Source: Synechococcus sp. | GTDB taxonomy: Bacteria; Cyanobacteriota; Cyanobacteriia; PCC-6307; Cyanobiaceae | Direction of reading: 5' to 3' | Assembly (NCBI GenBank): GCA_047285535.1 | Contig: JBJBDC010000001.1 | Location: 1,216,136-1,280,135, forward strand | DNA length: 64,000 bases | Shown here: piece after piece, positions 3,566 to 50,928 of the stretch | Position numbering within the stretch: position 1 is the stretch's first letter | Layout: every line of letters begins with the position of its first letter | Program-made: the position numbers and the translations under genes | The notes under the pieces: generated by a model | Databases searched by the model: none | What the model saw: the letters and a program-made list of their open reading frames with translations, nothing else | Told to the model about the DNA's origin: nothing

Positions 3566-3682
3566 TCAATGACCAAGGAGAATGGAATGAATCCTCGCTA
3601 GAAGGCGAAGAGTCAAACTCGCTTCAGAATTCGTCAACTGATTCATTCAGCCTTGCTACTGTCATTCAGATAAGGATGTTGA

Positions 3683-4390
<708 letters not shown>

Positions 4391-4398
4391 TCATCGTC

Positions 4399-7594: not shown

Positions 7595-7858
7595 TCCTTA
7601 CGAAATGCGCAAGATCACCTTAACGATTGATCACTGATATCGAAGCAGCAGATAATAATGAAAAGAGACCTACTCTCAAACCACTTTTGAATTACATGTA
7701 GACCTCCAAAAACCATCAAGAACAGACAAAAATAAATAAGGAAAAGAAGACCTTTACCCAACACTCGCCAAGCATGTATGCAAACTAAAAGACATTATTG
7801 AACAGGCTCAATACAATCGAGGAACGGACCATGCCTCGGCCAATTAAGCGCTTAAGAA

Positions 7859-9031: not shown

Positions 9032-9085
9032 ATCGCAATTAAAAATCTATCAATTCAACCTAGCGACGTTTGGCAGTCTGACAGC

Positions 9086-10897: not shown

Positions 10898-10901
10898 CGC
10901 T

Positions 10902-11375
10902 TTAATACCCTTGTCGGATCGAACGATCCAACAAAGAGCCTATGAAAGCGAGATGATCGGGAGATCCTTCAATTTTTTCGACGCCGGGGCGATCCATATA
11001 CAACAGTTTTGAAGCAGTCGTAGGAACCATGGATTTAGGAGTATGCGTTCGATCGAGGAGATAGCGTTCCAGCATGGCTGTGGACTCAGTGAGGCGGTGG
11101 CCGATAGCACGAGTATCCTCCAATCGCTGAAAGGCGACAGTCCAGCGGTATTGCCAGTGCAGGGTTAAGCCACTGAGGGCTAAAACAGCTGTAAAAACAC
11201 CAATTAAACTTCCATCCGCCACTCGATGTAGGCCAGCCAAAAGAGGAGACCGGCGTGCAACACGCTTCGCTGAAAGGGAGCCCTGAATGAGCTCCAGGGC
11301 ACCAGTGGCTGATGCGTGTTCCTGAAGTGCTGGTTGAGACTGGGGAACCGCGACCACGTCTAACGAATAAGGCAA
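10902..11375 (-). CDS. Single-TM membrane protein directly upstream of ftsI (possibly FtsL-like)
   Basis: One hydrophobic helix (LIGVFTAVLALSGLTL) followed by a helical segment; ends 4 bp before the ftsI start. Confidence 0.7.
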   Translation of the reverse strand: MPYSLDVVAVPQSQPALQEHASATGALELIQGSLSAKRVARRSPLLAGLHRVADGSLIGVFTAVLALSGLTLHWQYRWTVAFQRLEDTRAIGHRLTESTAMLERYLLDRTHTPKSMVPTTASKLLYMDRPGVEKIEGSPDHLAFIGSLLDRSIRQGY

Positions 11376-11444
11376 TGCGCCAGTGAACCATCCGCATGGT
11401 CAGCCCGCAAGGCCAACATCTCTGACGCCATCTGGAAAATCAAC

Positions 11445-12824
11445 TCAGCTTCCCAGCAAGACAAGATTCAAAAAGGTGACACCATTCCAAAGAGCGTGCA
11501 TCACCACGCAAGGCAGCAGACGACCACTACTCAAACGCAGTTGAGCCAAACCCAAACCAAGAACCAACAAGGGGAGCAATTCACCAATGCTGAGGTGAGC
11601 AACGGCAAACACAAGCGCACTGCCAAACACACTCCAGCCCCGTCCGAAAGAACGCCCCAACACGGGTAACAACACGCCACGGAAAATTGTTTCTTCAAAC
11701 AGAGGCGCCAACACCACTGCAGTAAGGGCCAGTAGAAGCAAAGCCAAAGGATCTCTGCCATCCAGAACCATTTGCAGCAGTGGATTGCTGCCTCCCTGGT
11801 CACCGATGAATCGACTCATCAGCCAACCGGTTAACACCACAGGTGGCATCACCATCAACCAGGCGCGACCACCCTGGAGAAAGGCTGTCCACAAGGGATT
11901 CAGCCGCCACTGCAGCCATCCACCCGCAGGCATGAGACGGGGATCTAGGCCTCGGAGCTGGCTTTTAAGGATGAGCAAGGGTGGTGTAGCCAAGGCGGCA
12001 TAGCCCACGATCACAGCCACCGCCTGATTGAGAGGCGCCGCGATACTCCGAGCCACTAATGCCGAAAAAGGCGTCACAAGCAGTGGCACCAACACCTCGC
12101 CCAGCACAACAAAACCGCCAGCGATCAGCAACACCATGTCAACCAAGCCAAGAAGAGGAGCTTGGAGTTCAGGCCAGGCTGACTGCCTTCGACGCAGGAC
12201 TAACCAAAGATGACGCAGCAGCAAAAGTGAACCCAACAACAACGCAGCGATTGGCAGCAGTTCGGTTAGGACAAGGCGTCGAGCTGCAGTCCTGGCGGCG
12301 GAGCGATCGACACACTTGGCCTGAGCTCCTCCCAGGGCCTGACAAACCAAACGGCGAGTTAGCGGATCAGGACTGTTTTCAGTCAAAAGGTCTTGGTCCT
12401 GAGAGGAGAGGTCGCGAGGGATCGGTTCACCTGCCAAGGCTTGCTGAAGCGCCTGAAGTTTTGGCGTCTGAAACGAAATCTCCAGCAAGGTGTTGCGACG
12501 AACTGGATCGTTTTCTAGCGATGCAAAGAGAAGTGCCTGGCGATCGCTGAGGCTATCGAGTGGCGTCTCTCTGAGAGTTTCCAGCAAACTCTTTGCTGGA
12601 TCCTTACCAACCAGCAAAGGTCTGAGCGATGGCGCCAAAGCCGGATCAGCCAGCAGGGCAAGCTCTTGCTGTTCCAAGGACAAAGCAGGTGCCACCGATG
12701 GGCGACCAAGGCTGTCCATCAGGCCAAGAAACCAAACACTGCAAGCCAGCACCATCGAGAGGACAGCCAAAAGGACCTTCCACTGAGGTGGTGAATTCGT
12801 CCGTTCGTTCAGCGGGCTGGTCAA
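11445..12824 (-). CDS. CPBP (CAAX/Abi) family intramembrane metalloprotease
   Basis: APLFEETIFRG, FAVAH and HALWN motifs; several TM helices. Confidence 0.92.
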   Translation of the reverse strand: MTSPLNERTNSPPQWKVLLAVLSMVLACSVWFLGLMDSLGRPSVAPALSLEQQELALLADPALAPSLRPLLVGKDPAKSLLETLRETPLDSLSDRQALLFASLENDPVRRNTLLEISFQTPKLQALQQALAGEPIPRDLSSQDQDLLTENSPDPLTRRLVCQALGGAQAKCVDRSAARTAARRLVLTELLPIAALLLGSLLLLRHLWLVLRRRQSAWPELQAPLLGLVDMVLLIAGGFVVLGEVLVPLLVTPFSALVARSIAAPLNQAVAVIVGYAALATPPLLILKSQLRGLDPRLMPAGGWLQWRLNPLWTAFLQGGRAWLMVMPPVVLTGWLMSRFIGDQGGSNPLLQMVLDGRDPLALLLLALTAVVLAPLFEETIFRGVLLPVLGRSFGRGWSVFGSALVFAVAHLSIGELLPLLVLGLGLAQLRLSSGRLLPCVVMHALWNGVTFLNLVLLGS

Positions 12825-31894: not shown

Positions 31895-33265
31895 ATGAGT
31901 CCCGCTGCGACCAAATTGGCTCAGGCCACATCCAAACCAAGCCCTTCAATCATCATGCTGGCCGATGAGAAAGGTCAGCCCAAAGCGGTAAAAGCCAAAA
32001 CAAAATCAGCTTCGAAAGCCAAAACAACAAAGAAGGCAAGCGCTAAAACAAAAGCAAGCAGCACAAAAACAAAAGCAAGCAGCACAAAAACAAAAGCAAG
32101 CAGTACAAAAGCGAAAGCAAGCAGTACAAAAACAAGCAAAGCGAAAGCAACTTCTACCACCGCCAAGTTGGAAGCGTCAGCTGATCAACTCCTTGCAGCG
32201 ACTGACAAAACGACCGCAGTCGCAAAAATCAGCGATAGCGCAGCAACGTCAGCCACAGACGCCAAAGCAGAAGCCAAAGCCAAGGTTCTTGCAAGTATTA
32301 AAGTTGGGCCGAAAGGGGTTTACACCGAAGACTCCATTCGTGTTTACCTTCAGGAAATAGGAAGAATCCGCCTTCTGCGTCCAGACGAAGAAATTGAATT
32401 AGCTCGCAAAATTGCAGACCTGCTCCACCTCGAGGAACTGGCTGCACAGTTTGAAAGCGATAACGGCAAACTTCCTGTCACGAAGGAATGGGCTGCACTG
32501 GTGGAAATGCCAGTGATTCGCTTCCGACGAAGGCTGATGCTTGGTCGTCGCGCAAAAGAAAAAATGGTGCAATCCAATTTGCGCCTTGTGGTGTCGATTG
32601 CCAAAAAATATATGAATCGTGGCCTGAGCTTTCAGGACCTCATTCAGGAAGGCAGCCTGGGACTGATTCGAGCTGCTGAAAAATTCGACCACGAAAAGGG
32701 CTACAAGTTTTCGACTTATGCCACTTGGTGGATCCGTCAAGCGATTACCCGCGCCATTGCCGATCAATCCCGAACCATCCGACTACCGGTTCACCTCTAC
32801 GAGACCATTTCCAGGATCAAAAAAACCACCAAGGTGCTCAGCCAAGAATTCGGCCGTAAGCCTACAGAGGAAGAAATCGCAGAATCGATGGAAATGACCA
32901 TCGAAAAATTGCGATTCATTGCCAAGAGTGCCCAACTTCCCATCTCGCTTGAAACTCCCATTGGCAAAGAAGAAGATTCACGCCTAGGCGACTTCATCGA
33001 AGCCGATATCGAAAATCCAGAACAAGATGTTGCCAAAAATCTTCTCCGCGAAGATCTTGAAGGAGTTCTTGCTACGCTTAGCCCTCGCGAAAGAGATGTC
33101 CTACGGCTTCGCTACGGCCTCGACGATGGTCGCATGAAAACATTGGAAGAAATTGGACAAATCTTTGATGTAACCCGCGAGAGGATTCGTCAGATAGAAG
33201 CCAAAGCACTCCGGAAATTACGCCATCCAAACAGAAACGGAGTTCTCAAGGAATACATCAAGTAA
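31895..33265 (+). CDS. rpoD: Principal RNA polymerase sigma factor (RpoD/SigA)
   Basis: [44 protein letters not shown] and [19 protein letters not shown]. Confidence 0.98.
32045..32128 (+). repeat. 21-bp tandem repeat, 4 copies, in rpoD region 1.1
   Basis: aaaacaaaagcaagcagcaca twice, then ...cagtaca, then aaagcgaaagcaagcagtaca; encodes K(T/A)KASST four times. Confidence 0.92.
33121..33263 (+). repeat. Left copy of the 143-bp direct repeat (rpoD 3' end, putative attL)
   Basis: Aligns without gaps to 49850-49992 with 10 mismatches. Confidence 0.95.
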
Positions 33266-33956: not shown

Positions 33957-35681
33957 GTGAATTTATTTGAAACTATGGAAATAAAATCATTCCTCGAAGG
34001 CAACCAAGACTTGGCAGAAGCATTGAGTGCTCTTCCCTTCATTGAAGAACTAGCCGAAACCGATTACGGCAGTATCTCGCTCAATAAATTTATCAACATC
34101 ATGGGTTCGAACGGATTTGAGGCTGAGAGTTTAAGAAGATCACTGCAGCAAGCCGTAGAATCTCTAATTGTAAATAACGAAACCCCACCAGAAGATCCCT
34201 TCAGCATTTCACTGGACGACTGGAAGCCATTAATTGGTGATGAGAGATCTAACGAAATAATCACAGCAATATCAAATTTGAATAAAGAAATTGACCTTGT
34301 AGCTGGTGGGACATCGTCCTCCAATCACAAAGCAGCTAGGGCGGTAGGAGCGACAGTAGTTGCAGCAGCCGGAGCTGCTACGCTTACATTCGCTGCAAAG
34401 AAATTGAAAGAGAACAAAAATAACATTGAGAAAGCCATCGAGATACAGGCCAAAATTGAGGCTGGCACTTTCGTTGAAGGCCGCGACATACCAGCAACAT
34501 GGACAAAAGATTGGCAGAACGCTAAAAAGGAAGTCGAAAGAAAGGCCAAAGATGCTGGAGTGTCACTGGAGGAGTATGAACGACGTGAATTTAGTGATGA
34601 ATTTTTCAGGGTGGGTGGACTGAAAGGCTTAGAGAAGCCTGTTATCAGTGCAATAGACAAAAATTTCCCCATTACAATCCTGCCGGAAGACTTAGCGAAG
34701 GCAAAAACAGCCATCAAGAAAGAACTGAAAACACAAGCCGATAATTTTGCAGAAACACGGTTTGGGATGGAATTCACCCTACATGGAGCAAAAGAAGAAA
34801 TAAAATCAATTGCCGATCAGATGATTGAAGAAAAGGTACTGACGCCAAGGATCTCGACAAGAAAGGTAGACGAATTAGCAACCAAAGCAACAGAAGCTGT
34901 ATTAGAATCATCAATAAAGACATTATACGAAAAAGATAAAGATCTAATAAAATTAATCAGCCCAGAAAACTTAAGAAGATTTGTCAAAGGCAAAATATCT
35001 GAAAGTGATTTAATTGAAAAAATAAAGACTAACAGCGCCTTTGCGAGGGCAAGTAAACGGGCAATACAATTCACAGAACAAGAGAAAGAAATGCTCTTGA
35101 AAGTTCCAACTGAATTCAAAAATAACATCCAAGGGATAAAAATAGACCTGAAAAAGTCAATGAAAAGCGCTTTAGACGATAAATTCAAAGAGACAATCAA
35201 CGAAAGAGCGGGGTTGGCGTTCAAGGAAGATTTTAATAAGGAAGATTTCAATCTTGAAACCTTAATGCCTAATTTAATAGACGATCATACTAAAATAAAG
35301 AAAATTTCCGCCAAGATCACGGCATTATCCGAGTCAGATATAATTAGCGATAAATTTGGAGGTGCAATAACCAAGGATATTGTTAAAGGCGCAGTGCAAG
35401 ATGTAAGAACAGAAGTCAGAAAAGAACTGAGAGACGTAATTGAAAAAGACTTAGTAAGCGCAGGGGAAATGCGTATGGAAAAAGAACTTGACATCGAAAC
35501 AGGAAAAGTTTCGGAAAAGATAGAAAAAGAATATATAGATAAATTTGAAACCCTTATAGATGATACAGCCAAAACGGATGTGGCCAAAGTAGCAAAAGCA
35601 TTTGAAAAAGATATTGCAAATCAACTTGTTAACGACCTTTCAGACTTTGGCGGTGGAAAGATAATAGATAAAATGGAGTAG
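33957..35681 (+). CDS. Large double-glycine-leader protein (574 aa), putative cargo of the adjacent exporter; start possibly ATG 33975
   Basis: EIDLVAGG at aa 111-118, then an Ala/Gly-rich hydrophobic helix and a long K/E-rich helical body. Confidence 0.75.
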   Translation: MNLFETMEIKSFLEGNQDLAEALSALPFIEELAETDYGSISLNKFINIMGSNGFEAESLRRSLQQAVESLIVNNETPPEDPFSISLDDWKPLIGDERSNEIITAISNLNKEIDLVAGGTSSSNHKAARAVGATVVAAAGAATLTFAAKKLKENKNNIEKAIEIQAKIEAGTFVEGRDIPATWTKDWQNAKKEVERKAKDAGVSLEEYERREFSDEFFRVGGLKGLEKPVISAIDKNFPITILPEDLAKAKTAIKKELKTQADNFAETRFGMEFTLHGAKEEIKSIADQMIEEKVLTPRISTRKVDELATKATEAVLESSIKTLYEKDKDLIKLISPENLRRFVKGKISESDLIEKIKTNSAFARASKRAIQFTEQEKEMLLKVPTEFKNNIQGIKIDLKKSMKSALDDKFKETINERAGLAFKEDFNKEDFNLETLMPNLIDDHTKIKKISAKITALSESDIISDKFGGAITKDIVKGAVQDVRTEVRKELRDVIEKDLVSAGEMRMEKELDIETGKVSEKIEKEYIDKFETLIDDTAKTDVAKVAKAFEKDIANQLVNDLSDFGGGKIIDKME

Positions 35682-36814: not shown

Positions 36815-36859
36815 TTGTTTTGTATATTTGATTCAAATCGAATCAAATATACAAAACAA
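36815..36859. repeat. Perfect 20-bp inverted repeat with a 5-nt spacer
   Basis: ttgttttgtatatttgattc-aaatc-gaatcaaatatacaaaacaa. Confidence 0.95.
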
Positions 36860-36950: not shown

Positions 36951-37268
36951 ATGACAAGTTCTACAGCTTTGGACACAAAGGCTGACAGTGAAGGTAGCGA
37001 ACAGTTGTCTGAGAAATTTATTGAATGTCTACAAACTCAAGCTGGTGAGATTGCAGAAAAATTCCCAAACATTAACCCAATGGAGGCTCACGCCTGTGCC
37101 TTGATCTTTGTTGATACATTGGCCAAACTTCATGAGGCTGGACTCGAGGAGTCAGTTAAAGCTGGAGATGCAAGGCAAGCAGGATCTTGGACCAGAGACC
37201 TTACCATTTTTGAAACAGTCATATCACTCCTCAGAAACATCCAACCACTTGATATAGACGCAATATAA
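36951..37268 (+). CDS. Acidic helical hypothetical protein (105 aa)
   Basis: ATG-started ORF in an AT-rich region with protein-like composition. Confidence 0.7.
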   Translation: MTSSTALDTKADSEGSEQLSEKFIECLQTQAGEIAEKFPNINPMEAHACALIFVDTLAKLHEAGLEESVKAGDARQAGSWTRDLTIFETVISLLRNIQPLDIDAI

Positions 37269-37845: not shown

Positions 37846-39051
37846 GTGAAAAACAAGCTGACAGAAGCAGCTGTCAAGAAACCCTTTCTCATAACGACAG
37901 TCTGCTTGTCAGCCTTAGGAGCTACGACACTAATTTGGTCAATATTTGGAAACCTTAAATTAGAATCAACAGGCATCGGAGTTATTTTGAGGGGCAAACA
38001 TTTTGTCACCATTTCAGCGCAAACAAGCGGAGTAATCAATAAGCAATACTTTAAATTAAACGATAAAGTACTTAAAGGTGAAAAAATTCTGTCTATGGCT
38101 AGCGAAATTAATAAAATCAGATTAGAGCAATCTCTTAAAACAATAAGCGAAACTCAGCCTTTAATTAAGCAAGCAAATAAAGCCGGAGAAGCAGATCTAA
38201 AAATTGCATCTGATTCGATAATCCGAGCGAGAAAGAATTTAGAGGCATCAATGCCAAAACTACAAGAACTTATTAAAGATCAAGAAATTGCATACAACGG
38301 ATTATTGAAGTTGTACTCAAATGGGCAGGTTGGAACACAAGAACTGGCAAATTCATTTTCGACACTATCAAGGCTCAAGCAACAAAGACAAGAATTAAGA
38401 CGACAGCTCCAAAATATAGAATCCAACTACAATCAACTACTGCAACAAAATGCTCAAAATGAAATACAATTAAGTTCAGAGATGATTGCCAATCAATCAC
38501 TGAAAGCTCAATTATTGCAGAAAATTAAACTCGCAAAAAATATACGAGCGCCGTTATCTGGGACAATCGTAAGCTACAACGTACCTGTTGGTGGATTTGC
38601 ACAAGAGGGAGATCCTTTAATAACGCTGAGCCCATCAGAAGGGCCACTGCGGGCAATTATCCTGGTTGGCGCAAAAGATTATGGAAGAGTCAAAGTAGGC
38701 AATAAAGCTTTAATCTCTCCAAGTGCTAGCCCGGCAATTAGATTTGGATATATTGAAGGTAGAGTATTTTCAAAGTCAGAAGCACCTGCAACAAGTGCAG
38801 AGCTAATAAAAGCATTTGGCTCTCAAGAGATAGCTCAAACATTAATCAATAGTTTTTCAAGGCAAGGAAGAGCTGATCTGCCTTATCTTGTTGATATTAT
38901 CATTGATCAAAAGAATAATGAGCCAATTTGGACCCTTGGGAAGCAACCACCGTGGGGTGTCAGTTTAGGAAGTGAGGCATCTGTGAGAATAGTATCAGAT
39001 GAAACGAGTCCTATCAGTTTAGTAATACCCTTTATACGAGGAGGGATATGA
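37846..39051 (+). CDS. HlyD-family adaptor, NHLM bacteriocin-system type
   Basis: N-terminal TM (..IWSIFGNL), ISAQTSG and IRAPLSGTI lipoyl halves around a coiled coil, RFGYIEGRV, and C-terminal W..GKQPP...PISLVIP. Confidence 0.88.
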   Translation: MKNKLTEAAVKKPFLITTVCLSALGATTLIWSIFGNLKLESTGIGVILRGKHFVTISAQTSGVINKQYFKLNDKVLKGEKILSMASEINKIRLEQSLKTISETQPLIKQANKAGEADLKIASDSIIRARKNLEASMPKLQELIKDQEIAYNGLLKLYSNGQVGTQELANSFSTLSRLKQQRQELRRQLQNIESNYNQLLQQNAQNEIQLSSEMIANQSLKAQLLQKIKLAKNIRAPLSGTIVSYNVPVGGFAQEGDPLITLSPSEGPLRAIILVGAKDYGRVKVGNKALISPSASPAIRFGYIEGRVFSKSEAPATSAELIKAFGSQEIAQTLINSFSRQGRADLPYLVDIIIDQKNNEPIWTLGKQPPWGVSLGSEASVRIVSDETSPISLVIPFIRGGI

Positions 39052-41186
39052 ATATAAATAACGCATTAGATTCTCTCCTTCGAAATGCATCGAGACAACC
39101 TCCATTTAATATTATTTTTCAATCAGACGAAACAGAATGCGGATTAGCATCATTAGTAATGGTGCTCAATATTTTTGGCAAAGATATCACGATCGAAAAA
39201 ATACGCAATGATTATGGCTCTACGAGAGGTGGGATGTCTATCGGTGAATTACGAAAACTTTCCATACTCTACGGTCTATTAGCATTGCCAGCAAAAGGAA
39301 ATCTGATTAAAAATGATAAATGCCCTGTAATTATATTTGCACACGGGGATCATTTTGCTGTTCTATGGGAAACCAAGAACAATCAATACTTCATAGCCGA
39401 TCCAGCTGATGGCAACCTTGTGTTGTCTCAATCAGAATTTGATGATTATTACTCTGGCATTTATATTGAGTTCAAAACAACTAGTAAATTCCAGATTACA
39501 GAAGCCAAAAATATTTCAAGAGAGCAAGATTCAACGCCGTCGCTGTCTACACTTTTATATAACAACAAAACCATAAACAGGTTAATAATACTATTTGCGT
39601 TTATTGCAGCATTTTTCACATTATTCAATGCAGCAATTCAAGATGTGTTCATGACCTATGTAGTAGAAGAAGGCCTTACTCTTTGGACAAAAGGCATGAT
39701 ATCTATAACAATAATAGTATCTATTGGCTTAGCATTGGCAACCTTCATGATGCAGATTGCTGCGCAAAGACAACTTCAAAACTCACTTCAGGGATGGAAT
39801 ATTGAACTTTTTAGTTCACTGTTTAGGGCTCCATATCAGTTTTTCATCAATAAAACATCAGGATTAATTGTCTCAAGATTCAATCAACTTGAAGAATCAT
39901 TTACCGGTTATCAATCATCAGTCATTGCGGCTTTAACAGGAGCCCTAAATCTTCTTATATTTATAGTCGCCGTAACAGTAGTCAGTATTCCTCTTGCATT
40001 TATTTCGGTAATAGGAATTGCAGGTTTTATGGCGGTTGGCTATAGGTTCCTCGGAATTAATATACAAAATAATTACCGATTAAGGGAAGCAGAATGTAAA
40101 GTATCTTCTTCTGAATTCAAACTTATACAAGGAAGAAATCAAATAACATTAGAAAACGGTGAGCAATCAATACTCAGAGAATTATCTTCTGGCTATTCAG
40201 CCTTGGGCACATCTCAACTCTCAATACAAACAACAGAGATTAGAAGTGAATTCATGCTTGGCATGATTGATCAATTACTTAACACTTTCCTTCTTATTAT
40301 ATCCTCTATTTTAATCGTCAAGGGCAATCTGACCACAGGAACTTATGCCGCTATCAATGTAATTATTGGAACAGCACTTGAGCCTATTCGGTCACTGGCT
40401 TCCCTAGTAGAGCAACTTCAGAATTCAAGGTTAATTTATAAATCTGCTCTTGACCTTTATCAACCAGAATCAAATGAAGTGATCACCACAAACAATGAAT
40501 TGAATATGGATAACCCTATGCTTAGCCTTTACAAAGTAACATTCAAGTATTCACTTTATGCAGAACCAATCTTTGAAAATATAAGTATCAGAATTGCTCA
40601 TCCTAAAAAGGAATGTATGATTGTAAGGTTATCCGGATCAAGCGGATCTGGGAAAAGTTCATTACTCAACGTGATTTCTGGATTGGTAAAACCGAACACG
40701 GGTTTGGTCAAAGTCTTTGGGATCAACACATCAAACACATCTCCTCAAAAAATCAGGCATATTATTCAATATATCGATAGAAATGTAATCATAGTAAAAG
40801 GATCAGTGGAAATGAACACTAGATTGGGAACAAGTGCAAGTCATAGTGAATACGAAGAGGCTGTGGAGATGTTGGGGCTAAGTTCACAAACAATCTTTAG
40901 CCAACAAAGCAAGCGCTACCTTGCTGATCAATCATCTATTAGCGTAGGTCAATCAATCATGATTGCCCTCGTCCGATCAGTTCTGATCAAACCCAAGTTA
41001 CTCCTAGTTGATGAAGCACTAGTCAGTATTCCTGAACAACTTCATGTCGGAATAATACGTGGGCTGAGAACACTGGGAATAAGCGCAATCATTGTTCAGC
41101 ATGGTAATGACGGCTTTATTTCAAAACTTGCCACTATCGATCTTGATAGGTTTAAAAATGAATCCGGGGAGGCTCTGGAGAAATGA
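39048..41186 (+). CDS. Peptidase-containing ABC transporter (C39 domain + TMD + NBD)
   Basis: QSDETECGLASL (Cys), DHFAVL (His), IADPADG (Asp), TM helices, Walker A GSSGSGKS and Walker B LLLVDE. Confidence 0.92.
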   Translation: MNINNALDSLLRNASRQPPFNIIFQSDETECGLASLVMVLNIFGKDITIEKIRNDYGSTRGGMSIGELRKLSILYGLLALPAKGNLIKNDKCPVIIFAHGDHFAVLWETKNNQYFIADPADGNLVLSQSEFDDYYSGIYIEFKTTSKFQITEAKNISREQDSTPSLSTLLYNNKTINRLIILFAFIAAFFTLFNAAIQDVFMTYVVEEGLTLWTKGMISITIIVSIGLALATFMMQIAAQRQLQNSLQGWNIELFSSLFRAPYQFFINKTSGLIVSRFNQLEESFTGYQSSVIAALTGALNLLIFIVAVTVVSIPLAFISVIGIAGFMAVGYRFLGINIQNNYRLREAECKVSSSEFKLIQGRNQITLENGEQSILRELSSGYSALGTSQLSIQTTEIRSEFMLGMIDQLLNTFLLIISSILIVKGNLTTGTYAAINVIIGTALEPIRSLASLVEQLQNSRLIYKSALDLYQPESNEVITTNNELNMDNPMLSLYKVTFKYSLYAEPIFENISIRIAHPKKECMIVRLSGSSGSGKSSLLNVISGLVKPNTGLVKVFGINTSNTSPQKIRHIIQYIDRNVIIVKGSVEMNTRLGTSASHSEYEEAVEMLGLSSQTIFSQQSKRYLADQSSISVGQSIMIALVRSVLIKPKLLLVDEALVSIPEQLHVGIIRGLRTLGISAIIVQHGNDGFISKLATIDLDRFKNESGEALEK

Positions 41187-43180
41187 TTGCTTATTCAGCA
41201 TCTGAGTATGCTCGTTATCTTCTTGAAAAAAAGAATGGCGAATTGTTGAGCGACCAAAATATCAAGACCAACTTAAGTGATCTTGCCGACAATGAATCGT
41301 TAACTCCAAGACAATTAGTTGAGACACTTTCATTTTATTTGCAAGTTAATGAATTACCCTACAAACACGAGACTGCAGTTTATTTGTCGGGATTAGGTAA
41401 AACAGTGTTTGCGGTATTAGAGACTGCAATTATAAGTCTGGATGATCTCGCAACAGCCAAAAACAACGATGAAATGAAGGATAGCAGTCTTTATGTTTTG
41501 AGCTCTAGTGTTCCGCAGAAAAAGCTAAGTAAGCTTTTGTTCCTCCAAGCGTTCATGAAAAGTCGTTGGAGTATGATACTAACACTTTTAATACTCGGTC
41601 TTCCAGCAGTAATTGCGCCTGCAATTGCAGAATTGCTGCAACAACCATTGTTTGATTCATTAATTCCCGAAGGCAGAATTCCCGCTATATTATTAATAGG
41701 AATAGCATCTATTCTGTTGCAAGCTAGTGGGCAAATCATAAGCAGTGTAAGCAGTCTGCTTTCTACTTACTTTACAAATAATATAGAGCTCGAGTCTAAG
41801 CTTGCAACTGCTAAAAGATTTTTAGATGCCAAACAAGCCTCTATTCCTCAGAAAGATATTGGCTCGTGGCGAATTACATTTAGTGTTGCAAGCTCATTTA
41901 TTGAATCAATTCAGTCGATATTCATTTCAATTCCAATTGCGATTATTTCGCTGATCGCGAATCTGCTAGTCGTTGGTGCATTTACAGATCTTCGTGCCAT
42001 CTGGCATTTATTCCTACTGATGCTTTTGCCGACTGTAATTAGTTCCATCATATCATATATCAGCTCCAACTACTATATAAAAATAATGGCCCAACAATCA
42101 TCCATAGAAACAACAATCTACGAAGTGGTGAAGGATATAAGGGAAATTTGGATGCTCGGATGTGAATCTATTTATCTAAATAGATTCTTTAGGTCTCGAA
42201 AAGCGATGTCAATTAACATGCTCTCAGCAGGTTTACTACAGTCACTATCTTCATCGTTCAATAATTTCTTTCAAGGGATTCTATACGCTTACATCTTTTT
42301 TGAGTTTTATCGCTCAACAGAATCGTCTTCATCGGAGCTATCTGTTGGTGCGCTCCTAGTGATGTATTTTGCGGTTGGTACCATTGGTGGTTCACTAGCA
42401 TCAATCTCCTCTGATCTCGTTGATCTAGCTCAAAGCCTCCCTACCTACTGGATGCCAAATGCTATTAGGGATATTGATGCCTTTGAAAGAAAGTCGTACT
42501 CAAAGGAAAAATGCCCAAGTAAAATCATACTCTCTGATGCAACTTTCTTGTACGGTGACATTCGAGCACCATTTCCGGAACCTATTAATATTAAGTTAGA
42601 ATCGGGTTTCAATTATGCATTAGTAGGACCATCTGGTTCAGGAAAAACAACTTTACTGAATATCATTGCGGGTCAACTATCTTTAACAGAGGGTAAGATG
42701 GAGATCTTTGATCGATTCAACCAAAAGGTAGATATATCACTGTCTGATTGTAATATTCTATATCTTGGGCAAAATACTAGTTTATATGGCTCGATTTTAC
42801 GGGATATTCTTGATCCAACAAAGTCGTTCACAGATAAGCAACTGTATAGTGCCATTTCAAAACTTAATCTAGATGAAATCATGGAATCACTTCCACTTAA
42901 ATTAAAAACACCAATCAATGAATTCAACAGAGATCTCTCTCTCGGACAGCTTCAACGCTTTAAACTTGCAAGGGCACTTCTTACTGATTATGACATTATT
43001 ATGAGCGACGAAATAACATGTCATCTTCCAGAAGATCTGCATTTACAGGCCATTCAGTTATTAAACAATAGATCAAGAATTCACATTTCCTCATTACATA
43101 GACTCTCTGCTGTTTCTCTCTTTGATAAGTGTATTACTTTGAATGGTAATGGAGAAGTTAAGGAGGCCGTTTCAACATGA
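41183..43180 (+). CDS. ABC transporter TMD+NBD without peptidase (second NHLM-type subunit)
   Basis: TM helices, GPSGSGKTT, LSLGQLQRFKLARALL, IMSDEIT and LHRL; 4-bp overlaps with both neighbours. Confidence 0.9.
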   Translation: MIAYSASEYARYLLEKKNGELLSDQNIKTNLSDLADNESLTPRQLVETLSFYLQVNELPYKHETAVYLSGLGKTVFAVLETAIISLDDLATAKNNDEMKDSSLYVLSSSVPQKKLSKLLFLQAFMKSRWSMILTLLILGLPAVIAPAIAELLQQPLFDSLIPEGRIPAILLIGIASILLQASGQIISSVSSLLSTYFTNNIELESKLATAKRFLDAKQASIPQKDIGSWRITFSVASSFIESIQSIFISIPIAIISLIANLLVVGAFTDLRAIWHLFLLMLLPTVISSIISYISSNYYIKIMAQQSSIETTIYEVVKDIREIWMLGCESIYLNRFFRSRKAMSINMLSAGLLQSLSSSFNNFFQGILYAYIFFEFYRSTESSSSELSVGALLVMYFAVGTIGGSLASISSDLVDLAQSLPTYWMPNAIRDIDAFERKSYSKEKCPSKIILSDATFLYGDIRAPFPEPINIKLESGFNYALVGPSGSGKTTLLNIIAGQLSLTEGKMEIFDRFNQKVDISLSDCNILYLGQNTSLYGSILRDILDPTKSFTDKQLYSAISKLNLDEIMESLPLKLKTPINEFNRDLSLGQLQRFKLARALLTDYDIIMSDEITCHLPEDLHLQAIQLLNNRSRIHISSLHRLSAVSLFDKCITLNGNGEVKEAVST

Positions 43181-44832
43181 GATTATTTTCATTAAATACC
43201 GGAGCTAAACTCTTCTTTTTAATAATTACCTCTTTTTTCAATCCTTCCTCTTATTCCTCTGCCAGCGAAATCAATGCTAAGTACAGCAATCATAGTTTTT
43301 CAGAAAAAGCTTGCAAGGATGAAAGGATTAAGGCAAATTTATTGCTAGCAGGAAGATTGCCTACATTCTACAATTGTTCAAACAGAATTGCTTTTAATTC
43401 AACTCCCACAAAATCGAAGTCTTCTGCAAAAGAGTTTTTTAATCTTGAGCCACTTTCCAACCCGAGTATTAAATCATTAGAGTTTGACTATAAAGCATCC
43501 GTTTATAAGGTTAAGTCAGCATATGGTGCATGGTGGCCAAATGTTTCAATGTCAAATAGTTCTATATTGTTTACAGATATACTTTCTAGGCAAAATTATG
43601 ATGCTCCAACCTCATCAACGTCGTCTCCTTCGAGTCGGGGAACGAGTTTTAATCCTATCGATCGCTCTAACCGAAATAACACAAGTAACTCTGATCAACT
43701 AACCGGTTTCAATACTACTTACGCTAACTATATTCAAGCGTATCCAGTTATCACTGTTGAATGGAATTTTTTAGATCCAACTCGTTATCCAAGCATAGCT
43801 GCCGCAAAGAAGCAAAAACAATTAGCATTGCTCGAGCTCGAGAAAACAAAATCAAATCTTCAAAGTAAAATAAGTCAACTCTCAGTTGAGTATCGTTATT
43901 CTCTTTATACGATTGGAGAGTTAATTCAAATTATGAGTATTCAAAAAGATATTATTTCACTTACAAAGTCTCTAGTTGACCTTAAAGAGTTGCCAAGAAT
44001 TCAACAAATTAAAGCACTTCGTGAGCAAGCTCAGTCCCAGAATCGTCTGAACCAAGCCCAAATTAGACTAGCTAATATTAAATCTGAGATTGCATCTATC
44101 ATTCTCCCTCAAATTCAACATTTAAAGCTCGACACCGTAACGGTAGATGATGTCATTAATGATTATTTACTTAAAGAAAACTACACTGAAAAATCATTGA
44201 AAGAATGGAGTCGTGACTCTGATACGACATATCAATTGGCATTAGAAAACTCTTCTAAAGTTAAAGAACTAACATTACAAGCAGGCATTTCTAAAGACTC
44301 TGCCAACCAAGAATGGGGATCTATACTGCCAACTATTGGATTTCTTGGTTATATTACATATCAGTATACAGCTGGAAGCCAAAATTATGCACCTCCTGAG
44401 CAGCCTAATGGTGCAGCGTCGGCGGTGCTAACAAATTATTTTGGACTTTCAGTGTCATGGAATCTCTTTGATGGATATGCCACTCGGCACCAGGCAAGAG
44501 CGTATGAAATGAAAGAACAATCACTATTAAAGAAAATAGAACAAGAAGTCATCACTCTGCGACCATCGACACAGCTACTACTGACCAAACTTAATTTCTC
44601 AAAAAAGCAAATTGATCTAGCAATCAAAGATTCGTCTGCTGCAAAAATAATCTCTTCAGATGTTGAGGCCAGATCTCAGTATGGTTTAGGCAGTCAATAC
44701 GATTATTTTAGTGCCCTTATTGATTATCATCAATCAAAGATCTATCTTCTCGAAGCATTATCTGAATATAGTCGAATATATCTTCAATTGTCACGTTTGA
44801 CAAGTTCAAACACGTCTGGTTCGTCAATTTAA
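43177..44832 (+). CDS. TolC-family outer-membrane efflux protein
   Basis: Signal peptide, twofold repeat (AYGAWWPNVS...VEWNFLD and EWGSILPTIG...GLSVSWNLFDG), and RSQYGLGSQYD C-terminal helices. Confidence 0.88.
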   Translation: MRLFSLNTGAKLFFLIITSFFNPSSYSSASEINAKYSNHSFSEKACKDERIKANLLLAGRLPTFYNCSNRIAFNSTPTKSKSSAKEFFNLEPLSNPSIKSLEFDYKASVYKVKSAYGAWWPNVSMSNSSILFTDILSRQNYDAPTSSTSSPSSRGTSFNPIDRSNRNNTSNSDQLTGFNTTYANYIQAYPVITVEWNFLDPTRYPSIAAAKKQKQLALLELEKTKSNLQSKISQLSVEYRYSLYTIGELIQIMSIQKDIISLTKSLVDLKELPRIQQIKALREQAQSQNRLNQAQIRLANIKSEIASIILPQIQHLKLDTVTVDDVINDYLLKENYTEKSLKEWSRDSDTTYQLALENSSKVKELTLQAGISKDSANQEWGSILPTIGFLGYITYQYTAGSQNYAPPEQPNGAASAVLTNYFGLSVSWNLFDGYATRHQARAYEMKEQSLLKKIEQEVITLRPSTQLLLTKLNFSKKQIDLAIKDSSAAKIISSDVEARSQYGLGSQYDYFSALIDYHQSKIYLLEALSEYSRIYLQLSRLTSSNTSGSSI

Positions 44833-45206: not shown

Positions 45207-48200
45207 GTGAGCATGGGAGATTTCAATTTATTTTACCAAGCTCTTCAATCTTTAGATAACGACATCACCATTTTAGGCACAAGCGAGGATTTAGTTGTCG
45301 CTGATTGGCTCAAAACAGAGGGATATGATATTACCTACATTCTTGACTGCCTTAAAAAAATTAAAAGAAGCAACGGTGAAACTAACTCTAAAACACTCAC
45401 CGTTGAAATACTTGGTGACAAGAGAAAACGTGAACTGCTGCTAAGAAGCTATAGAGATTCCATTGATAGTACTGCCGGTGGAATGTTGACTTCTGTAGAA
45501 AGAGTAAGAGAAGCATCTATTAAAGGTCTAAAGAATCATCGCGACTTGCTGGAGAAAGCCCAAAGTGAAATTGAAAAAGGAAAAATAGCAAAGGAGATGG
45601 TTCCTACAGTTGAAGGTGGAATTGAGCCAGCATACATCAATAAAATATCCTCAATAAAAGAACTAGTAAATTCTCGGCCTGTTCATCTATATTGGAAAAA
45701 CTATCAGGAAATGCGAGATATCGGTTGGCATGCTTATGCAAAAACACGGTTAATTAGCTTCATAAAATATGCTGTTAGGAAACAATATGCGAATTGGAAA
45801 GCTGCTTATATTGCTGCTCTGGGATCATCAGCAAATAGGGGGAATTGGTCTGGTGGATATATGAACGGCACTAAACAAGATGGTTCTGGTTACATATCCT
45901 ATGGAAGAAATGGAGATCATTACACATCATATTCGATATACGGAACTTGGGATGACCCTTTTCAAAAAGGTGGTTCATTTAATATCAATATTTATGGTAT
46001 GAATAGCCAATGGAGGCTAGAAGGAAATAAGCATAATACTGCAATTACGGCTTCTATTAATGAAAGTAATGGCAAAATTACCTATACATCCTACATAGAG
46101 CCTGATAATGCTGGTCTTATTGCATTACCAAAATACACAGGAGAGGTGACATCTCGACAAATTCTAGAGAAATCAAAACAATTCCAAACTGACGAGAACA
46201 TTGTTCACTCTTATGAGAATGCAACTCTAGGCTCATCTTTTGCAGCTGTCGTAAGAAAGCATTATCCAAATTTCAATATCAATGAGAAAGTCAAAGATTT
46301 TCAAAAAATCTTGGCTTATTCAGCCATTGCCTATGTTGTCAAAAGAACCTACATTGCTGAAGGAAAGATTAATAGCCAATTTATTAATCAAGCGCTTAAG
46401 CGATTGACTGAGACTGGCACGTTACATGATGCATTCGCTTTAATTAACTATCAGGCGCGCATGCAAAAATTACATCTTGATCATATACTGAGTGCCACAA
46501 ATCTCAAACACAAAGCCAAAGCCTCGCGTGTTTGGGCCTCTGAAGAAGTTGCTCTTGATAGAGTTGCGAGAAACTCAATTCTCAATAGTAGCCGAGAGTA
46601 CCAGCGATTAATTAATGATGGACTTAGTAATAAAATGGCCGAAAGAGCCGCCAACCTGACATTTTTCTCCGATTTGTTGGTCTTTGACAGCTTTATATAT
46701 AGTGCTCCTACAAAAGACATTAAACTAGATTTTACGAAAAAGGACGCAACTATTGCTAATTACTCTCGCATCGCATTACCCGTTATTATTACCCAAGAAG
46801 CAAAGATCAGCAAGACGATTCTGCGACAAGAGAAAACGTTTAAATACATTCCTAAGTACACTAATTTAGTTCTAAGCTTCGAGAAACTAAAGTATGAGGC
46901 GTTTAGGGCGATATCAGTTGGCTCTTACGACTATTTCAAGCAGTACCTGGGTTTTCATCCGATTCATCGTTCGCTCAGGTTCATGAAAAATTCAGTTATT
47001 TTACCGACAGAAAAATGGATTGAAAGTTGGGGAAATAGTGCCTTGTGGACACAAATAACAACTGATGCCTTTTCAACTGTTAATTTTGTAGGGTTTTCAT
47101 TAACACGAGCAATTGTTCACTTACCTAAGCACATTTATGAAGATACTAAAAAGCTAGGTGAGCAGCTCGTTCATTTATTTAGTGGTGGTGATACTTGGGC
47201 TGGAATTGGAGGGGGCATATGGCGAGATATTAAAGGTCCTGTCAAAACCATTGAATTATTGGGTGAAAATGCCCTACTTGTTTTCGCGAGCTCCTTTGAT
47301 CCGCTATTCTATAAAACAAAGTTTGCAAAATCAATTATAGGCAAAGATAAAAACTTTGGGCAACTTATTGCAGATGCATGGCACTACGAATGGAACAAAC
47401 AGCGAATAAAATTAGCGCTTACTTTGCACAAGATCAATGCCCCGATAAGAAAGGAACTAAGTGAAATCACGAATGGTAAAATACCGAATCCAAGCGCATC
47501 ATTTTTTAGTAACCATGAAAATCTTAATGCCAAAAAAAATCAATTAACTCTGAAACTTTTAATCTCTTTCAGGTCCGGAATAACGAGCAAGTTGCAAAAT
47601 CATGCTGACGCAATTAACACTGCAATAACGATTGCTCAAGCCAATAAGTTTAAGACGACAAAAGATCTCCTTGTGCTTTCACAAGGCGGAAAAGTAAACA
47701 TTAATGGAAAAACAATTAGCGGCATGGAAATCAATGATGCACTCCAGTCATTAATTGCGAATATGGCTGACAAATATATTGCTTCAAAAGATTATACAAA
47801 TAAGCAAGAAAAGACTTTTGTTATCAATAATCTGGCCACGACAGAATTTAGAGATGGATTTCAAGCATGGACTCAGCGACAATTGGCAATATTTAAAAAC
47901 GAAATGAAGATGTATCAATACATAAATCAACAAAGTACTCGCTTTGAACAATTAGCTTTCAAGATCTCTATAGCCAACAAAATCAATCGGGGAATTAAAG
48001 ATGAAGGTTCTTCCTTGAAGTATCAGGTAGGTCATTTATGGCATCAAGGAAGAGCCAATACATTCTTTTTCAAGGCGTTTGATAAGCCCTTGCAGCATTC
48101 ATTCAATGCTTTATCTACTGGTAAGAAAACCAATGAAGCAAATAAGCAACTGAATCATTTTCAAAGAAATCATAAGCCCGGTGAAAAGCTATTTGCTGAC

Positions 48201-49265
48201 ATCCTTCTAACAGAAACAGCAGATAGAGTTATGCGGAATATTGGAAATATTCACTATAAAATTGAAACTGGAGCATATGCTATTGGTACTTCTAAATATC
48301 AGAAGGACTTGCCTTTCGCTAAAAAAGAGCTGCTTCTTTCGATGCGCTTGCATCAGAACACAGCTCAAGAGATTGAAGAATGGAGCAAGAGGATTAAAAT
48401 CACAAATCGACTTGGAAAGATCACACTGGATCAAGCTAGTCTTTCTAAACTTAAGAATGCAACATTCAACGGGCTACTGACAAAAGCCAAACAAAACATT
48501 CATCTTGTCACTGCCGTTGATTCAAGCTTAGTAAAAATAGCCAATAAAGAGTCATCTATTCTCAATAAACCGATCACAGTGCAAGACGTAATTACAGGGA
48601 CGGAGAATTGGTGGGATCGCGCAGTAAGTAAAGGATACTTTTATCAGCATTGGAAAACCGTTGTGACGACTCGCTCATCTCATAATGCGGCACTTGCAGC
48701 GTTATTGAATGATGTTGAAATTCTTCAAGGTGGTGGAAGCATGACATTTGGACAATTTATTAACTCTCTTCCTCAAAATAAGAATTGGAAGCTTTCACTC
48801 GCTCCTCATGCAATTCCTTCAAGGGGTCCATCTTCAATTGCTATTAGCAACTTAAATATCAAAGCAGGAGTCCTTACACCTAAAAAAGTAAATCAAGTGG
48901 CAAAACAAAAGGTGAAAGTTCCTATTCTTTTGTTCAAAAACCGTATAAAATTTGCGAGAAACATATGGAAAAAAATCACTGGCAGTGGCAAAAAAGATGA
49001 TCTTCTCCAGCAAATCGAACACGCTGAAAAGAAGACTATTGTCAATGCAGATGAAAGACGCGTCGCCAAAGAGCTAGGAGAAGACGAGCTTAAGGAATTG
49101 GATAATCTTCTTGTTGAGGATGCGATCAAAGTTGAAAGTGAAGCGGAATTATCAATTGAAATTGAAGAATCCAACGCACTGAGTTCAGTTGACGAACTTA
49201 TCGATACAACTTTAACTGACGCAATAGACACAACAGAGGAAACTATTGCAGAAGCTATAGTTTGA
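45207..49265 (+). CDS. Giant double-glycine-leader protein (1352 aa), putative exported cargo or toxin; start possibly ATG 45213
   Basis: 4-kb open frame with an AGGA element upstream; SIDSTAGG at aa 85-92; leader resembles that of the 574-aa protein. Confidence 0.78.
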   Translation: MSMGDFNLFYQALQSLDNDITILGTSEDLVVADWLKTEGYDITYILDCLKKIKRSNGETNSKTLTVEILGDKRKRELLLRSYRDSIDSTAGGMLTSVERVREASIKGLKNHRDLLEKAQSEIEKGKIAKEMVPTVEGGIEPAYINKISSIKELVNSRPVHLYWKNYQEMRDIGWHAYAKTRLISFIKYAVRKQYANWKAAYIAALGSSANRGNWSGGYMNGTKQDGSGYISYGRNGDHYTSYSIYGTWDDPFQKGGSFNINIYGMNSQWRLEGNKHNTAITASINESNGKITYTSYIEPDNAGLIALPKYTGEVTSRQILEKSKQFQTDENIVHSYENATLGSSFAAVVRKHYPNFNINEKVKDFQKILAYSAIAYVVKRTYIAEGKINSQFINQALKRLTETGTLHDAFALINYQARMQKLHLDHILSATNLKHKAKASRVWASEEVALDRVARNSILNSSREYQRLINDGLSNKMAERAANLTFFSDLLVFDSFIYSAPTKDIKLDFTKKDATIANYSRIALPVIITQEAKISKTILRQEKTFKYIPKYTNLVLSFEKLKYEAFRAISVGSYDYFKQYLGFHPIHRSLRFMKNSVILPTEKWIESWGNSALWTQITTDAFSTVNFVGFSLTRAIVHLPKHIYEDTKKLGEQLVHLFSGGDTWAGIGGGIWRDIKGPVKTIELLGENALLVFASSFDPLFYKTKFAKSIIGKDKNFGQLIADAWHYEWNKQRIKLALTLHKINAPIRKELSEITNGKIPNPSASFFSNHENLNAKKNQLTLKLLISFRSGITSKLQNHADAINTAITIAQANKFKTTKDLLVLSQGGKVNINGKTISGMEINDALQSLIANMADKYIASKDYTNKQEKTFVINNLATTEFRDGFQAWTQRQLAIFKNEMKMYQYINQQSTRFEQLAFKISIANKINRGIKDEGSSLKYQVGHLWHQGRANTFFFKAFDKPLQHSFNALSTGKKTNEANKQLNHFQRNHKPGEKLFADILLTETADRVMRNIGNIHYKIETGAYAIGTSKYQKDLPFAKKELLLSMRLHQNTAQEIEEWSKRIKITNRLGKITLDQASLSKLKNATFNGLLTKAKQNIHLVTAVDSSLVKIANKESSILNKPITVQDVITGTENWWDRAVSKGYFYQHWKTVVTTRSSHNAALAALLNDVEILQGGGSMTFGQFINSLPQNKNWKLSLAPHAIPSRGPSSIAISNLNIKAGVLTPKKVNQVAKQKVKVPILLFKNRIKFARNIWKKITGSGKKDDLLQQIEHAEKKTIVNADERRVAKELGEDELKELDNLLVEDAIKVESEAELSIEIEESNALSSVDELIDTTLTDAIDTTEETIAEAIV

Positions 49266-49849: not shown

Positions 49850-49992
49850 CGGCGATGGACGCATGAAAACATTGGAAGAAAGTAGAGCAATCTTTGTTGT
49901 AACCCGCGAGAGGATTCGTCAGATAGAAGCCAAAGCACTCCGGAAATTAAGCCATCCCAACAGAAACGGAGTTCTCAAGGAATGCATCAAGT
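49850..49992 (+). repeat. Right copy of the rpoD 3' end (putative attR, sigma region 4 relic)
   Basis: 133/143 identical to 33121-33263; translates as [47 protein letters not shown]. Confidence 0.95.
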
Positions 49993-50571: not shown

Positions 50572-50928
50572 ATGAGTATGAACCACAGCAATGCACCACG
50601 CGACTTCCTAGAGGCGCTGCAATCACTCAAACAAGCAAGACTTGTGACCCATGCATTCATGACGCATGATCACCAATTCAATGGTCTAACCGAAGCTGAA
50701 CAAAATAGCTTGCAAAACAGCATCACACCGTATTTTAATGCAATTTTTGAAATCGAAGACAGAATTTTATCCTGGTATCGCGAAATTCATCCAGAGCTCA
50801 TAGACGATGACGACTTAATCGAATCAATCGAGGAAGAGTTTGGCTACGAAACGTTACTTTCCGAGAAAGGGAAACTAGACTTGGAAAAACTCTTCAAAGA
50901 AGGTAATGAAGGAACCACTCAAAATTAA
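50572..50928 (+). CDS. Acidic hypothetical protein (118 aa)
   Basis: ATG-started ORF with protein-like composition. Confidence 0.7.
   Translation: MSMNHSNAPRDFLEALQSLKQARLVTHAFMTHDHQFNGLTEAEQNSLQNSITPYFNAIFEIEDRILSWYREIHPELIDDDDLIESIEEEFGYETLLSEKGKLDLEKLFKEGNEGTTQN

Follow-up and report, generated by a model that had tools for sequence, protein, structure and literature searches.

Candidate long double-glycine leaders on two large proteins flanking a C39 peptidase exporter in a Synechococcus genomic island

The window analysed here is a stretch of 64,000 nucleotides from Synechococcus sp. (NCBI GenBank assembly GCA_047285535.1, contig JBJBDC010000001.1, positions 1,216,136 to 1,280,135 of the forward strand), and coordinates count from its first letter. 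It carries two open reading frames (ORFs) of 574 aa (33957-35681) and 1352 aa (45207-49265), which lie on the same strand and flank an operon for HlyD, an ATP-binding cassette (ABC) exporter with a C39 peptidase domain, a second ABC protein (ABC2) and TolC. A previous sequence-only reading had attributed to both proteins a common leader type, described as an extended Nif11-like export tag with an added GDxRxxE motif, attached to swappable cargo as in polymorphic toxin systems. This interpretation is partly supported. A putative N-terminal export tag ending in Gly-Gly (GG) for the C39 transporter agrees with the flanking HlyD/C39-ABC/ABC2/TolC genes, with the intact C39 residues and with the canonical end of the first leader; the Nif11-like membership and the added motif are not borne out. 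We favour, with moderate confidence, the reading that both N-termini are long double-glycine leaders for the peptidase-exporter of this island. The parts of the two proteins are the following.

33975..34310, + strand: leader 1, 112 aa, predicted all-helical, ending EIDLVAGG, with the GG codons at 34305-34310
34311..35681, + strand: cargo 1, the 456 aa past the GG; no lead from Pfam, NCBIfam, PHROG, PDB or Atlas
45207..45482, + strand: leader 2, 92 aa, predicted helical, with the non-canonical double-glycine end SIDSTAGG
45483..49265, + strand: cargo 2, 1260 aa, with an acidic tail ending hydrophobic; no Pfam, NCBIfam, PHROG or PDB lead

Both translated stretches (33957-34310 and 45207-45482) terminate in GG. 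All strings quoted in the earlier reading were recovered from them exactly and in the same order, and the four motif pairs are collinear in a gapped global alignment. The cargo parts are unrelated, with a best full-length BLASTP match of E = 1.0, and therefore the likeness does stop at the GG as had been claimed. The initial observation is partly confirmed, in that the leader likeness exceeds chance only weakly; the label 'giant' does not suit the first protein, which has only 574 aa. Its ORF could also open at a GTG at 33957. All six homologues start at the Met encoded at 33975, and for this reason leader 1 is taken as 112 aa (33975-34310) and the full protein probably comprises 568 aa.

Leader 1 is the most conserved region of its family, with 63-95% identity versus 24-59% in the C-terminal cargo, as in the precursors of the NHLP and N11P families (Haft 2010, PMC2887384). 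The VAGG end is invariant in 6 of 6 aligned leader-1 sequences and also in the relatives P0012 and P0014, making eight family sequences in all, and the end across the family reads [ED/N]I[DE]LVAGG. An NGFE turn is kept in all six full leader-1 sequences aligned. Substrates of peptidase-containing ABC transporters (PCATs) have been described by a consensus with a hydrophobic residue at -12, an acidic residue at -8, hydrophobic residues at -7 and -4, and G-[GAS] at -2/-1 (PMC6363468). Measured against this consensus, leader 1 terminates in E(-8) I(-7) x x V(-4) A G G: position -8 is E/D in the family, and -7 and -4 are occupied by I and V ahead of the GG, but its Leu sits at -11 and not at -12. 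When the island was scanned in six frames with the strict double-glycine pattern, two sites only were found, namely leader 1 and a non-conserved internal site of the 1352-aa protein. This internal site, LLNDVEILQGG (residues ~1166-1176, ending at 48734), is IKSGQ in the relatives P0011 and P0019 and probably fits by chance.

The end of leader 2 is more divergent. Across its family it reads [ST][IL]xxT[AS]GG, in which all 3 sequences aligned keep T[AS]GG unchanged although leader identity drops to 30%, and the turn of this family reads GYD or GYN. The expected conservation of GG among homologues holds in these sequences of both families. The leader-2 profile retrieves no proteins other than its own three; a single match among 400 genomes of the family (E = 0.004), in a 62-aa frame with two stops, was taken as chance.

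Mature cargo 1 has its first ~100 aa conserved, and its C-terminal part diverges fast and is Lys/Glu-rich by inspection; though diverged, the C-terminal tails of the family are still alignable. An Ala/Gly-rich hydrophobic segment near its beginning (34341-34397, residues 123-141, Kyte-Doolittle maximum 1.71) could be a membrane-inserting or surface-anchoring piece. Polymorphic toxins join a conserved N-terminal trafficking part to exchangeable C-terminal toxin domains and are accompanied by cognate immunity genes; any analogy drawn from the conservation gradient seen here would be tentative. No toxin domain was detected in the window's proteins in library scans with Pfam, NCBIfam and PHROGs, nor was an immunity gene identified. 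In PDB sequence and profile searches, neither cargo family had a match below E = 0.07; none of the window's proteins matched PHROGs, and the ESM Atlas contained no usable match for the 574-aa or the 1352-aa protein.

The 574-aa protein is rare in databases. Against 1,835,955,588 representative proteins, the leader-1 profile returned six matches, of which five are members of its own cargo family, two being fragments, and the sixth is spurious. The 1185-aa repeat protein P0015 was rejected as a relative of leader 1, because its match (E = 1.6e-4) falls in internal repeats. The same profile matched none of 400 genomes of the family, and alignment A1 none of 45 genomes of the genus. Neither the exporter nor alignment A1 retrieved relatives from genome contigs, nor did alignments A1 or A2 from metagenome contigs, and neither protein had a tblastn match among plasmids. 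Among sequencing runs, only tiny marine-metagenome contigs map on the stretch, with shares of 0.05-0.09, and the uncovered parts are uninterpretable. In three marine metagenome runs, contigs of 151 and 300 nt match segments of the 574-aa gene (34082-34359 and 35040-35339) without any difference, the GG site included; two of these runs hold identical pieces and are possibly one data set filed twice.

The genes between the two proteins are listed here from left to right.

36951..37268, + strand: 105-aa accessory ORF; no family match; accompanies the system
37846..39051, + strand: HlyD-type membrane fusion protein; best model TIGR03794 (E = 2.8e-29, under the cut-off), Pfam HlyD_3 and HlyD_D23
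39048..41186, + strand: C39-peptidase ABC exporter (PCAT); PF03412 (E = 1.7e-26), TIGR03796 (E = 2.7e-72, under the cut-off)
~39105-39485, + strand: C39 peptidase domain of this exporter, with Cys31, His102 and Asp118
41183..43180, + strand: second ABC permease/ATPase, without peptidase domain; best model TIGR03797 (E = 4.9e-41, under the cut-off)
43177..44832, + strand: TolC-like outer membrane factor; PF02321 (E = 9.3e-34)

The three best models of the transport proteins remain well under their equivalog cut-offs (102 vs 156, 244 vs 853 and 141 vs 709 bits, respectively). TIGR03794, TIGR03796 and TIGR03797 have been described as an export cluster tied to NHLP and Nif11-derived precursors (Haft 2010, PMC2887384). 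When aligned with LahT150 and PCAT1, the C39 domain retains the Gln as well as Cys31, His102 and Asp118, which are also kept in the orthologue from another genome of the genus, G236, and to judge from these residues the peptidase of the exporter is catalytically intact. The best solved match of the domain is the double-glycine protease LahT150 (6mpz, E = 1.7e-16), an enzyme that cleaves GG leaders of both Nif11 and NHLP type (Bobeica 2019, PMC6363468). Pfam detects no RTX repeats in either large protein, and the ABC protein has the catalytic Cys, so that the system does not correspond to the RTX type.

These data are consistent with the following sequence of events. The leader would be bound by the C39 domain through its C-terminal amphipathic helix, and the peptidase of the ABC exporter, encoded 5 kb downstream, would cut leader 1 after EIDLVAGG. 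The mature cargo 1 of 456 aa, beginning TSSSNHK, would then leave the cell through a type I channel of HlyD, ABC1-ABC2 and TolC. The 92-aa N-terminus of the 1352-aa protein would serve this machine too, as another leader that has diverged further. In a complex prediction, residues 1-160 of the C39 protein together with leader 2 scored 0.35 versus 0.00 for the best control, with runs agreeing in at least 78% of contacts and a partner predicted local distance difference test (pLDDT) of at least 51. Of 157 solved complexes, 116 attain the mark of 0.35, as do 2 of 215 mismatched pairs; scores up to 0.60 hold only 18 of the 157 solved complexes, but both passing mismatches. This pass is weak support, and may reflect a likeness to solved C39-leader complexes and not binding of this copy.

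The exporter has an orthologue with about 51-52% identity in a second genome of the genus (G236), the other matches among 400 family genomes lying at 26-27%. None of 400 genomes of the class passes E <= 1e-90 with the exporter as query, and the system was seen in 2 of the ~800 genomes sampled in this way. The operon of G236 keeps the same order, with 50% identity for HlyD, 51% for ABC2 and 41% for TolC. Two large proteins are encoded beside it. P0016 is an acidic repeat protein of 861 aa, located upstream of HlyD with a LuxR-type gene in between; its N-terminus of 129 aa includes ...DWLKWLDDEGYSAQ... and ends in ...HSDVVGAAGG, followed by TG. P0019, encoded downstream on the other strand, is a member of the 1352-aa family (24% identity over 872 aa, E = 3e-40), and its N-terminus reads FLIDQGYD...SIQYTGAG. 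Genes of the 1352-aa family thus adjoin both known copies of the exporter. Beside two orthologous exporters there are thus GG-ended N-termini of one layout on three mutually unrelated cargo families, which lends genuine though thin support to a shared leader type on different cargo. The swappable cargo of the earlier reading gains from the unrelated P0016 with its GG end, and loses from the leader profiles, each of which finds only its own cargo family.

Other genes of G236 differ from those of the island. The LuxR-family (GerE) regulator directly upstream of HlyD (L026, 11754-12449) has no counterpart in the island. Between the TolC gene and the homologue of the 105-aa ORF sits a 1005-aa protein (L027, 4958-7975) with DUF4347 (E = 1e-17), propeller-like repeats and a host-like GC content of 56-62%, whose N-terminus is not of the GG type.

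Outside the source genome, a search of 45 genomes of the genus located the 105-aa ORF in one only, namely G236 with the sister operon (L027, 8571-8873, minus strand). At 62.5% identity (tblastn) it is the best-conserved gene of the system. Because it is so conserved beside different cargo, it appears to fit a system component better than an immunity protein. Two short metatranscriptomic contigs match it with 1 and 27 differences, where carry-over of DNA is possible. In the gap between the 574-aa gene and this ORF, a perfect 20-nt inverted repeat with a 5-nt loop (36815-36859) may be a terminator or an operator.

The whole system lies between two copies of a direct repeat.

33121..33263, + strand: left copy of a 143-nt direct repeat; the present 3' end completing sigA and the island's left border
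49850..49992, + strand: right copy of the 143-nt direct repeat; the decayed original 3' end of sigA and the island's right border

The copies share 93% identity and are 16,729 nt apart, as established by a repeat search and by aligning them with the corresponding end of sigA in a relative; in the right copy, the sigA stop codon is now TCA. Between ~34 and 49 kb the GC content is 36-38%, versus 52-57% in the flanks. All 4 of the complete genomes of the genus that were examined have sigA, a 181-aa ORF and hemC side by side, and from this contiguity in the relatives it is concluded that a cassette of ~16.7 kb is inserted as a single unit in the 3' end of sigA. The gene of the 574-aa protein lies at the edge of this mobile island and that of the 1352-aa protein at its other end. 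No integrase was seen in the island, no tRNA in the window, and no Rfam family within the island. The 118-aa ORF at 50572-50928 contains FLEALQSL and was considered as a leader relative, but it is unrelated to both leaders by BLASTP.

Whether the two leaders are related to each other can be approached in several ways. In shuffles of the leader pair, z ranges from 3.75 to 4.94, and 0-7 of 2000 shuffles attain the observed score. As controls, none of 116 pieces from the 1352-aa protein and none of 34 from the 574-aa protein attain the score of the pair. Among 2205 N-termini of the genome, self excluded, the pair falls in the top 0.1-0.4%. The 18 cross-family leader pairs give z values of 0.1-4.9. 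With P0016 and P0019 added, hhalign matched leader 1 with the leader-2 profile in 81-87 collinear columns at P = 0.0015-0.011 and a probability of 3.7-6.7%. In a MAFFT alignment of 11 leaders, the G[FY] turn and the GG end fall in common columns, and the turn recurs in P0009, P0011, P0019 and P0016. The three leaders, two in the window and one in G236, share a layout. In its N-terminal part this consists of a predicted helix, a hydrophobic-x-x-x-G-[FY]-polar turn, a second helix and a variable loop; in its C-terminal part, of a long amphipathic helix and the end hydrophobic(-7)-x-x-[VTA](-4)-[AGS]-G-G.

The motifs of the earlier reading were less uniform in the relatives. At the site of GDxRxxE, the relatives of leader 1 read GDERSNE, GDETSNE or GEQAVED, and those of leader 2 GDKRKRE, GNERKRK or SEKRFRD. 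Among leader-1 sequences the Arg occurs in the window copy only, and Gly and Asp vary in both families. As an added motif GDxRxxE is therefore not conserved in the relatives of either leader, and its occurrence in both window leaders is, on these alignments, a coincidence. The EALSAL / QALQSL motif is not retained in P0011.

A number of results weigh against the two N-termini being leaders of one type for one exporter. BLASTP of leader against leader gives nothing at E <= 100. Each leader hidden Markov model (HMM), run with --max against 27,074 six-frame ORFs of the genome, retrieves at E <= 10 its own protein only, and hhalign of the two leader-family profiles (A3 vs A4) gives a probability of 0.5%. 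Among the 2205 genome N-termini, 5-9 unrelated proteins equal the match of leader 2 to leader 1, and 1-3 equal that of leader 1 to leader 2; the best-scoring controls listed include TolC-like, sensor-kinase-like and vWA-like proteins. Both motifs together occur in 2 of the 2205 N-termini, a count that is circular, the motifs having been defined after the fact from the same proteins. The AlphaFold2 models of both leaders consist of helices, arranged in a similar order, at low confidence (mean pLDDT 56.5 for leader 1 and 50.9 for leader 2). In leader 2, only I/L(-7) and the GG are canonical, positions -4 and -8 being Thr and Ser/Thr, and the N-terminus of P0019 ends in GAG and not in GG. The size of the cargo is a further difficulty. 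The MccV system shows a drop in export at 116 aa (PMC10231218), and 290 cyanobacterial precursors mined earlier measure 28-164 aa, in a survey of small ORFs only (PMC3140520).

When relatives were added to the database, the leader HMMs again returned their own family only at E <= 20, and the sole cross-family row, P0011 against the leader-1 HMM (E = 9.2), lies among chance matches. The expectation that leader profiles would hit the N-termini of diverse large proteins was accordingly disappointed. The shuffle statistics proposed earlier are mildly positive, and unrelated genome N-termini score equally high. A calibration puts these failures in perspective, since the N-terminus of P0019 gives z = -0.3 to 0.1 against P0009 and P0010 despite true homology. 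These leaders diverge past detection within one cargo family, and the failed standard tests therefore say little either way. Overall, the likeness of the two leaders is of the order of one in a few hundred, which is no more than suggestive, and their common ancestry is plausible. Of the shared leader type, the G[FY] turn, the GG end and the layout hold, and significant sequence homology does not; the three leaders have no statistically secure homology to each other or to Nif11.

One alternative accepts only the 574-aa protein as a double-glycine substrate. The resemblance of the 1352-aa protein would then be due to chance together with a helical, low-GC composition, and this protein would be exported by its C-terminus, or not at all. 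The four members of its family (window, P0010, P0011 and P0019) end in ...EAIV, ...DVLV, ...LGI and ...LIEL, and all four have an acidic tail followed by hydrophobic residues (~49100-49265 in the window). Such an acidic and hydrophobic C-terminus may be a C-terminal signal of type I secretion, which would be another point against two leaders. The leader-leader score within the range of unrelated N-termini, the departures of leader 2 and P0019 from the canonical end, and the weak complex score fit this alternative as well. It does not explain why T[AS]GG keeps its position in all three leader-2 sequences, why the G[FY] turn recurs across P0009, P0011, P0019 and P0016, or why genes of the 1352-aa family stand beside both exporter copies. 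The C39 domain is moreover of the active type, unlike the Cys-less HlyB type (PMC8277102), and Pfam finds no RTX repeats. We regard this explanation as unlikely.

Another alternative, likewise held to be improbable, treats the leaders as very diverged N11P members, that is, an old leader type with unusually long cargo. The Nif11 domain consists of a helix, an A-x-x-x-G-[FY] turn and a second helix, and the leaders fit this layout. The end of leader 1 resembles the consensus leader end of N11P, ELSDEELEAVAGG (Haft 2010, PMC2887384), and an ELxxVAGG-type end at which conservation stops is seen in leader 1 and in part in leader 2. The best models of the three transport genes point in the same direction, as do the 11 Nif11-domain ORFs of the source genome above the Pfam cut-off, and the P0019 calibration indicates that leaders of true homologues can escape detection. 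Family searches argue otherwise. PF07862 and TIGR03798 match none of the leaders at E <= 1 (Pfam, NCBIfam) or E <= 10, and a scan of the source genome with PF07862 at E <= 10 gave 17 places, neither leader among them. Comparison by hhalign with 12 Nif11 domains of the same genome gave probabilities of 0.1-4%, and Foldseek of the leader models, which are of low confidence, found nothing in the PDB at E <= 0.001 (best E = 2.0 and 3.4). The leaders also measure 92-129 aa, against 69 aa for the N11P leader, which precedes a core of 23 aa (Haft 2010, PMC2887384), and the short hypervariable core of the Nif11 type is replaced by cargo of 456 and 1260 aa. The term 'Nif11-like' is thus not sustained as family membership; the resemblance is one of layout, with a helix, a G-aromatic turn, a helix and an ELxxVAGG-like end.

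The source genome has a twelfth Nif11-domain ORF just below the Pfam cut-off. None of the 12 shows a Gly-Gly leader end, and for this reason they do not look like lanthipeptide-type precursors. The genome also encodes five C39-domain proteins. One of them, with a weak partial match, adjoins a 2094-aa ORF (C1, ~2491-12585), and the two may represent a classical type I system for large cargo.

It is very unlikely that neither N-terminus is cleaved, the GG being a hinge of helical domains and the real substrate an unannotated small peptide or one encoded elsewhere: cargo far beyond the known PCAT size range and the four other C39 loci and many Nif11 genes of the genome would allow it, but the strict six-frame scan of the island gave no small GG-type precursor candidate, the listed Nif11 ORFs are without GG ends (0 of 12), the GG is invariant while the flanking cargo diverges, and a third GG-ended N-terminus lies beside the sister operon.

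With both N-termini taken as long double-glycine leaders, the system can be compared with known exporters. It shares with N11P/NHLP a long, conserved and structured leader (69-108 aa in those families) ending in E-L-x-x-V-A-G-G, conservation that ends at GG, adjacent genes for HlyD, C39-ABC and a second ABC protein, and occurrence in cyanobacteria, where N11P/NHLP are common (PMC2887384). It differs in that no Nif11, TIGR03798 or TIGR03793 HMM matches, TolC is included and the island has no modification enzymes, and the N11P/NHLP core is ~23-27 aa and Cys/Ser/Thr-rich, versus cargo of 456-1260 aa here (PMC2887384).

In class II microcins (MccV, with CvaA, CvaB and TolC) and in the LahT, PCAT1 and ComA systems, a GG leader is cut by an active C39 domain in one-step export, and leader 1 shares their -8, -7, -4 signature. 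Mature cargo 1, like microcins, would start with a Gly/Ala-rich hydrophobic stretch. Leaders of the microcin/PCAT class are ~15-25 aa long versus 92-129 aa here, and the ABC pair of the island, unlike this class, appears to be heterodimeric. By description, the system can also be likened to the contact-dependent Cdz bacteriocins of Caulobacter, small glycine-zipper proteins that have GG leaders and hydrophobic segments rich in Gly/Ala and are exported by a C39-ABC protein and HlyD. In size, microcins stay below 10 kDa versus cargo of 50-140 kDa here (PMC10231218).

The HlyA/RTX type resembles the island in its large acidic cargo and its ABC-HlyD-TolC channel, the 1352-aa family having an acidic tail with a hydrophobic end. 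In that type the signal is C-terminal and stays uncleaved, and the C39-like domain lacks the catalytic Cys (PMC8277102), in contrast to the Cys/His/Asp and N-terminal GG found here.

Descriptions of type I secretion usually distinguish two kinds: in one, the substrates are small peptides whose N-terminal GG leader is cleaved off, and in the other they are large proteins whose C-terminal signal stays uncleaved (PMC10231218, PMC6959990). The unusual feature of the present system is the size of cargo and leader, the cargo being 5-10 times larger than known GG-leader substrates. A literature search of limited coverage found no description of a PCAT that exports large proteins by way of N-terminal GG leaders. 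We propose only tentatively that the island represents a distinct mobile type I class, in which an active C39 exporter would handle cargo of 50-140 kDa by means of a folded helical GG leader of 90-130 aa. As for the leader module, it would be an offshoot of the Nif11-like leaders, either independent or very distant, placed on at least three unrelated cargo families and accompanied by a dedicated 105-aa accessory protein.

If the proteins are truly cut and exported, an active peptidase-transporter would move cargo 5-10 times longer than the substrates listed in the cited literature, and the textbook split between small cargo with an N-terminal GG and large cargo with a C-terminal signal would be broken. 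How a cavity-type exporter threads such chains would then become a question. A previous mining of cyanobacterial C39 loci recovered few precursors for HlyD + C39-ABC clusters, 0.35 per cluster in group I (PMC3140520). Since that mining was restricted to small ORFs, large GG-led neighbours may have been overlooked more widely. For the secretion of large proteins by cyanobacteria, the leaders described here would then offer a long N-terminal tag.

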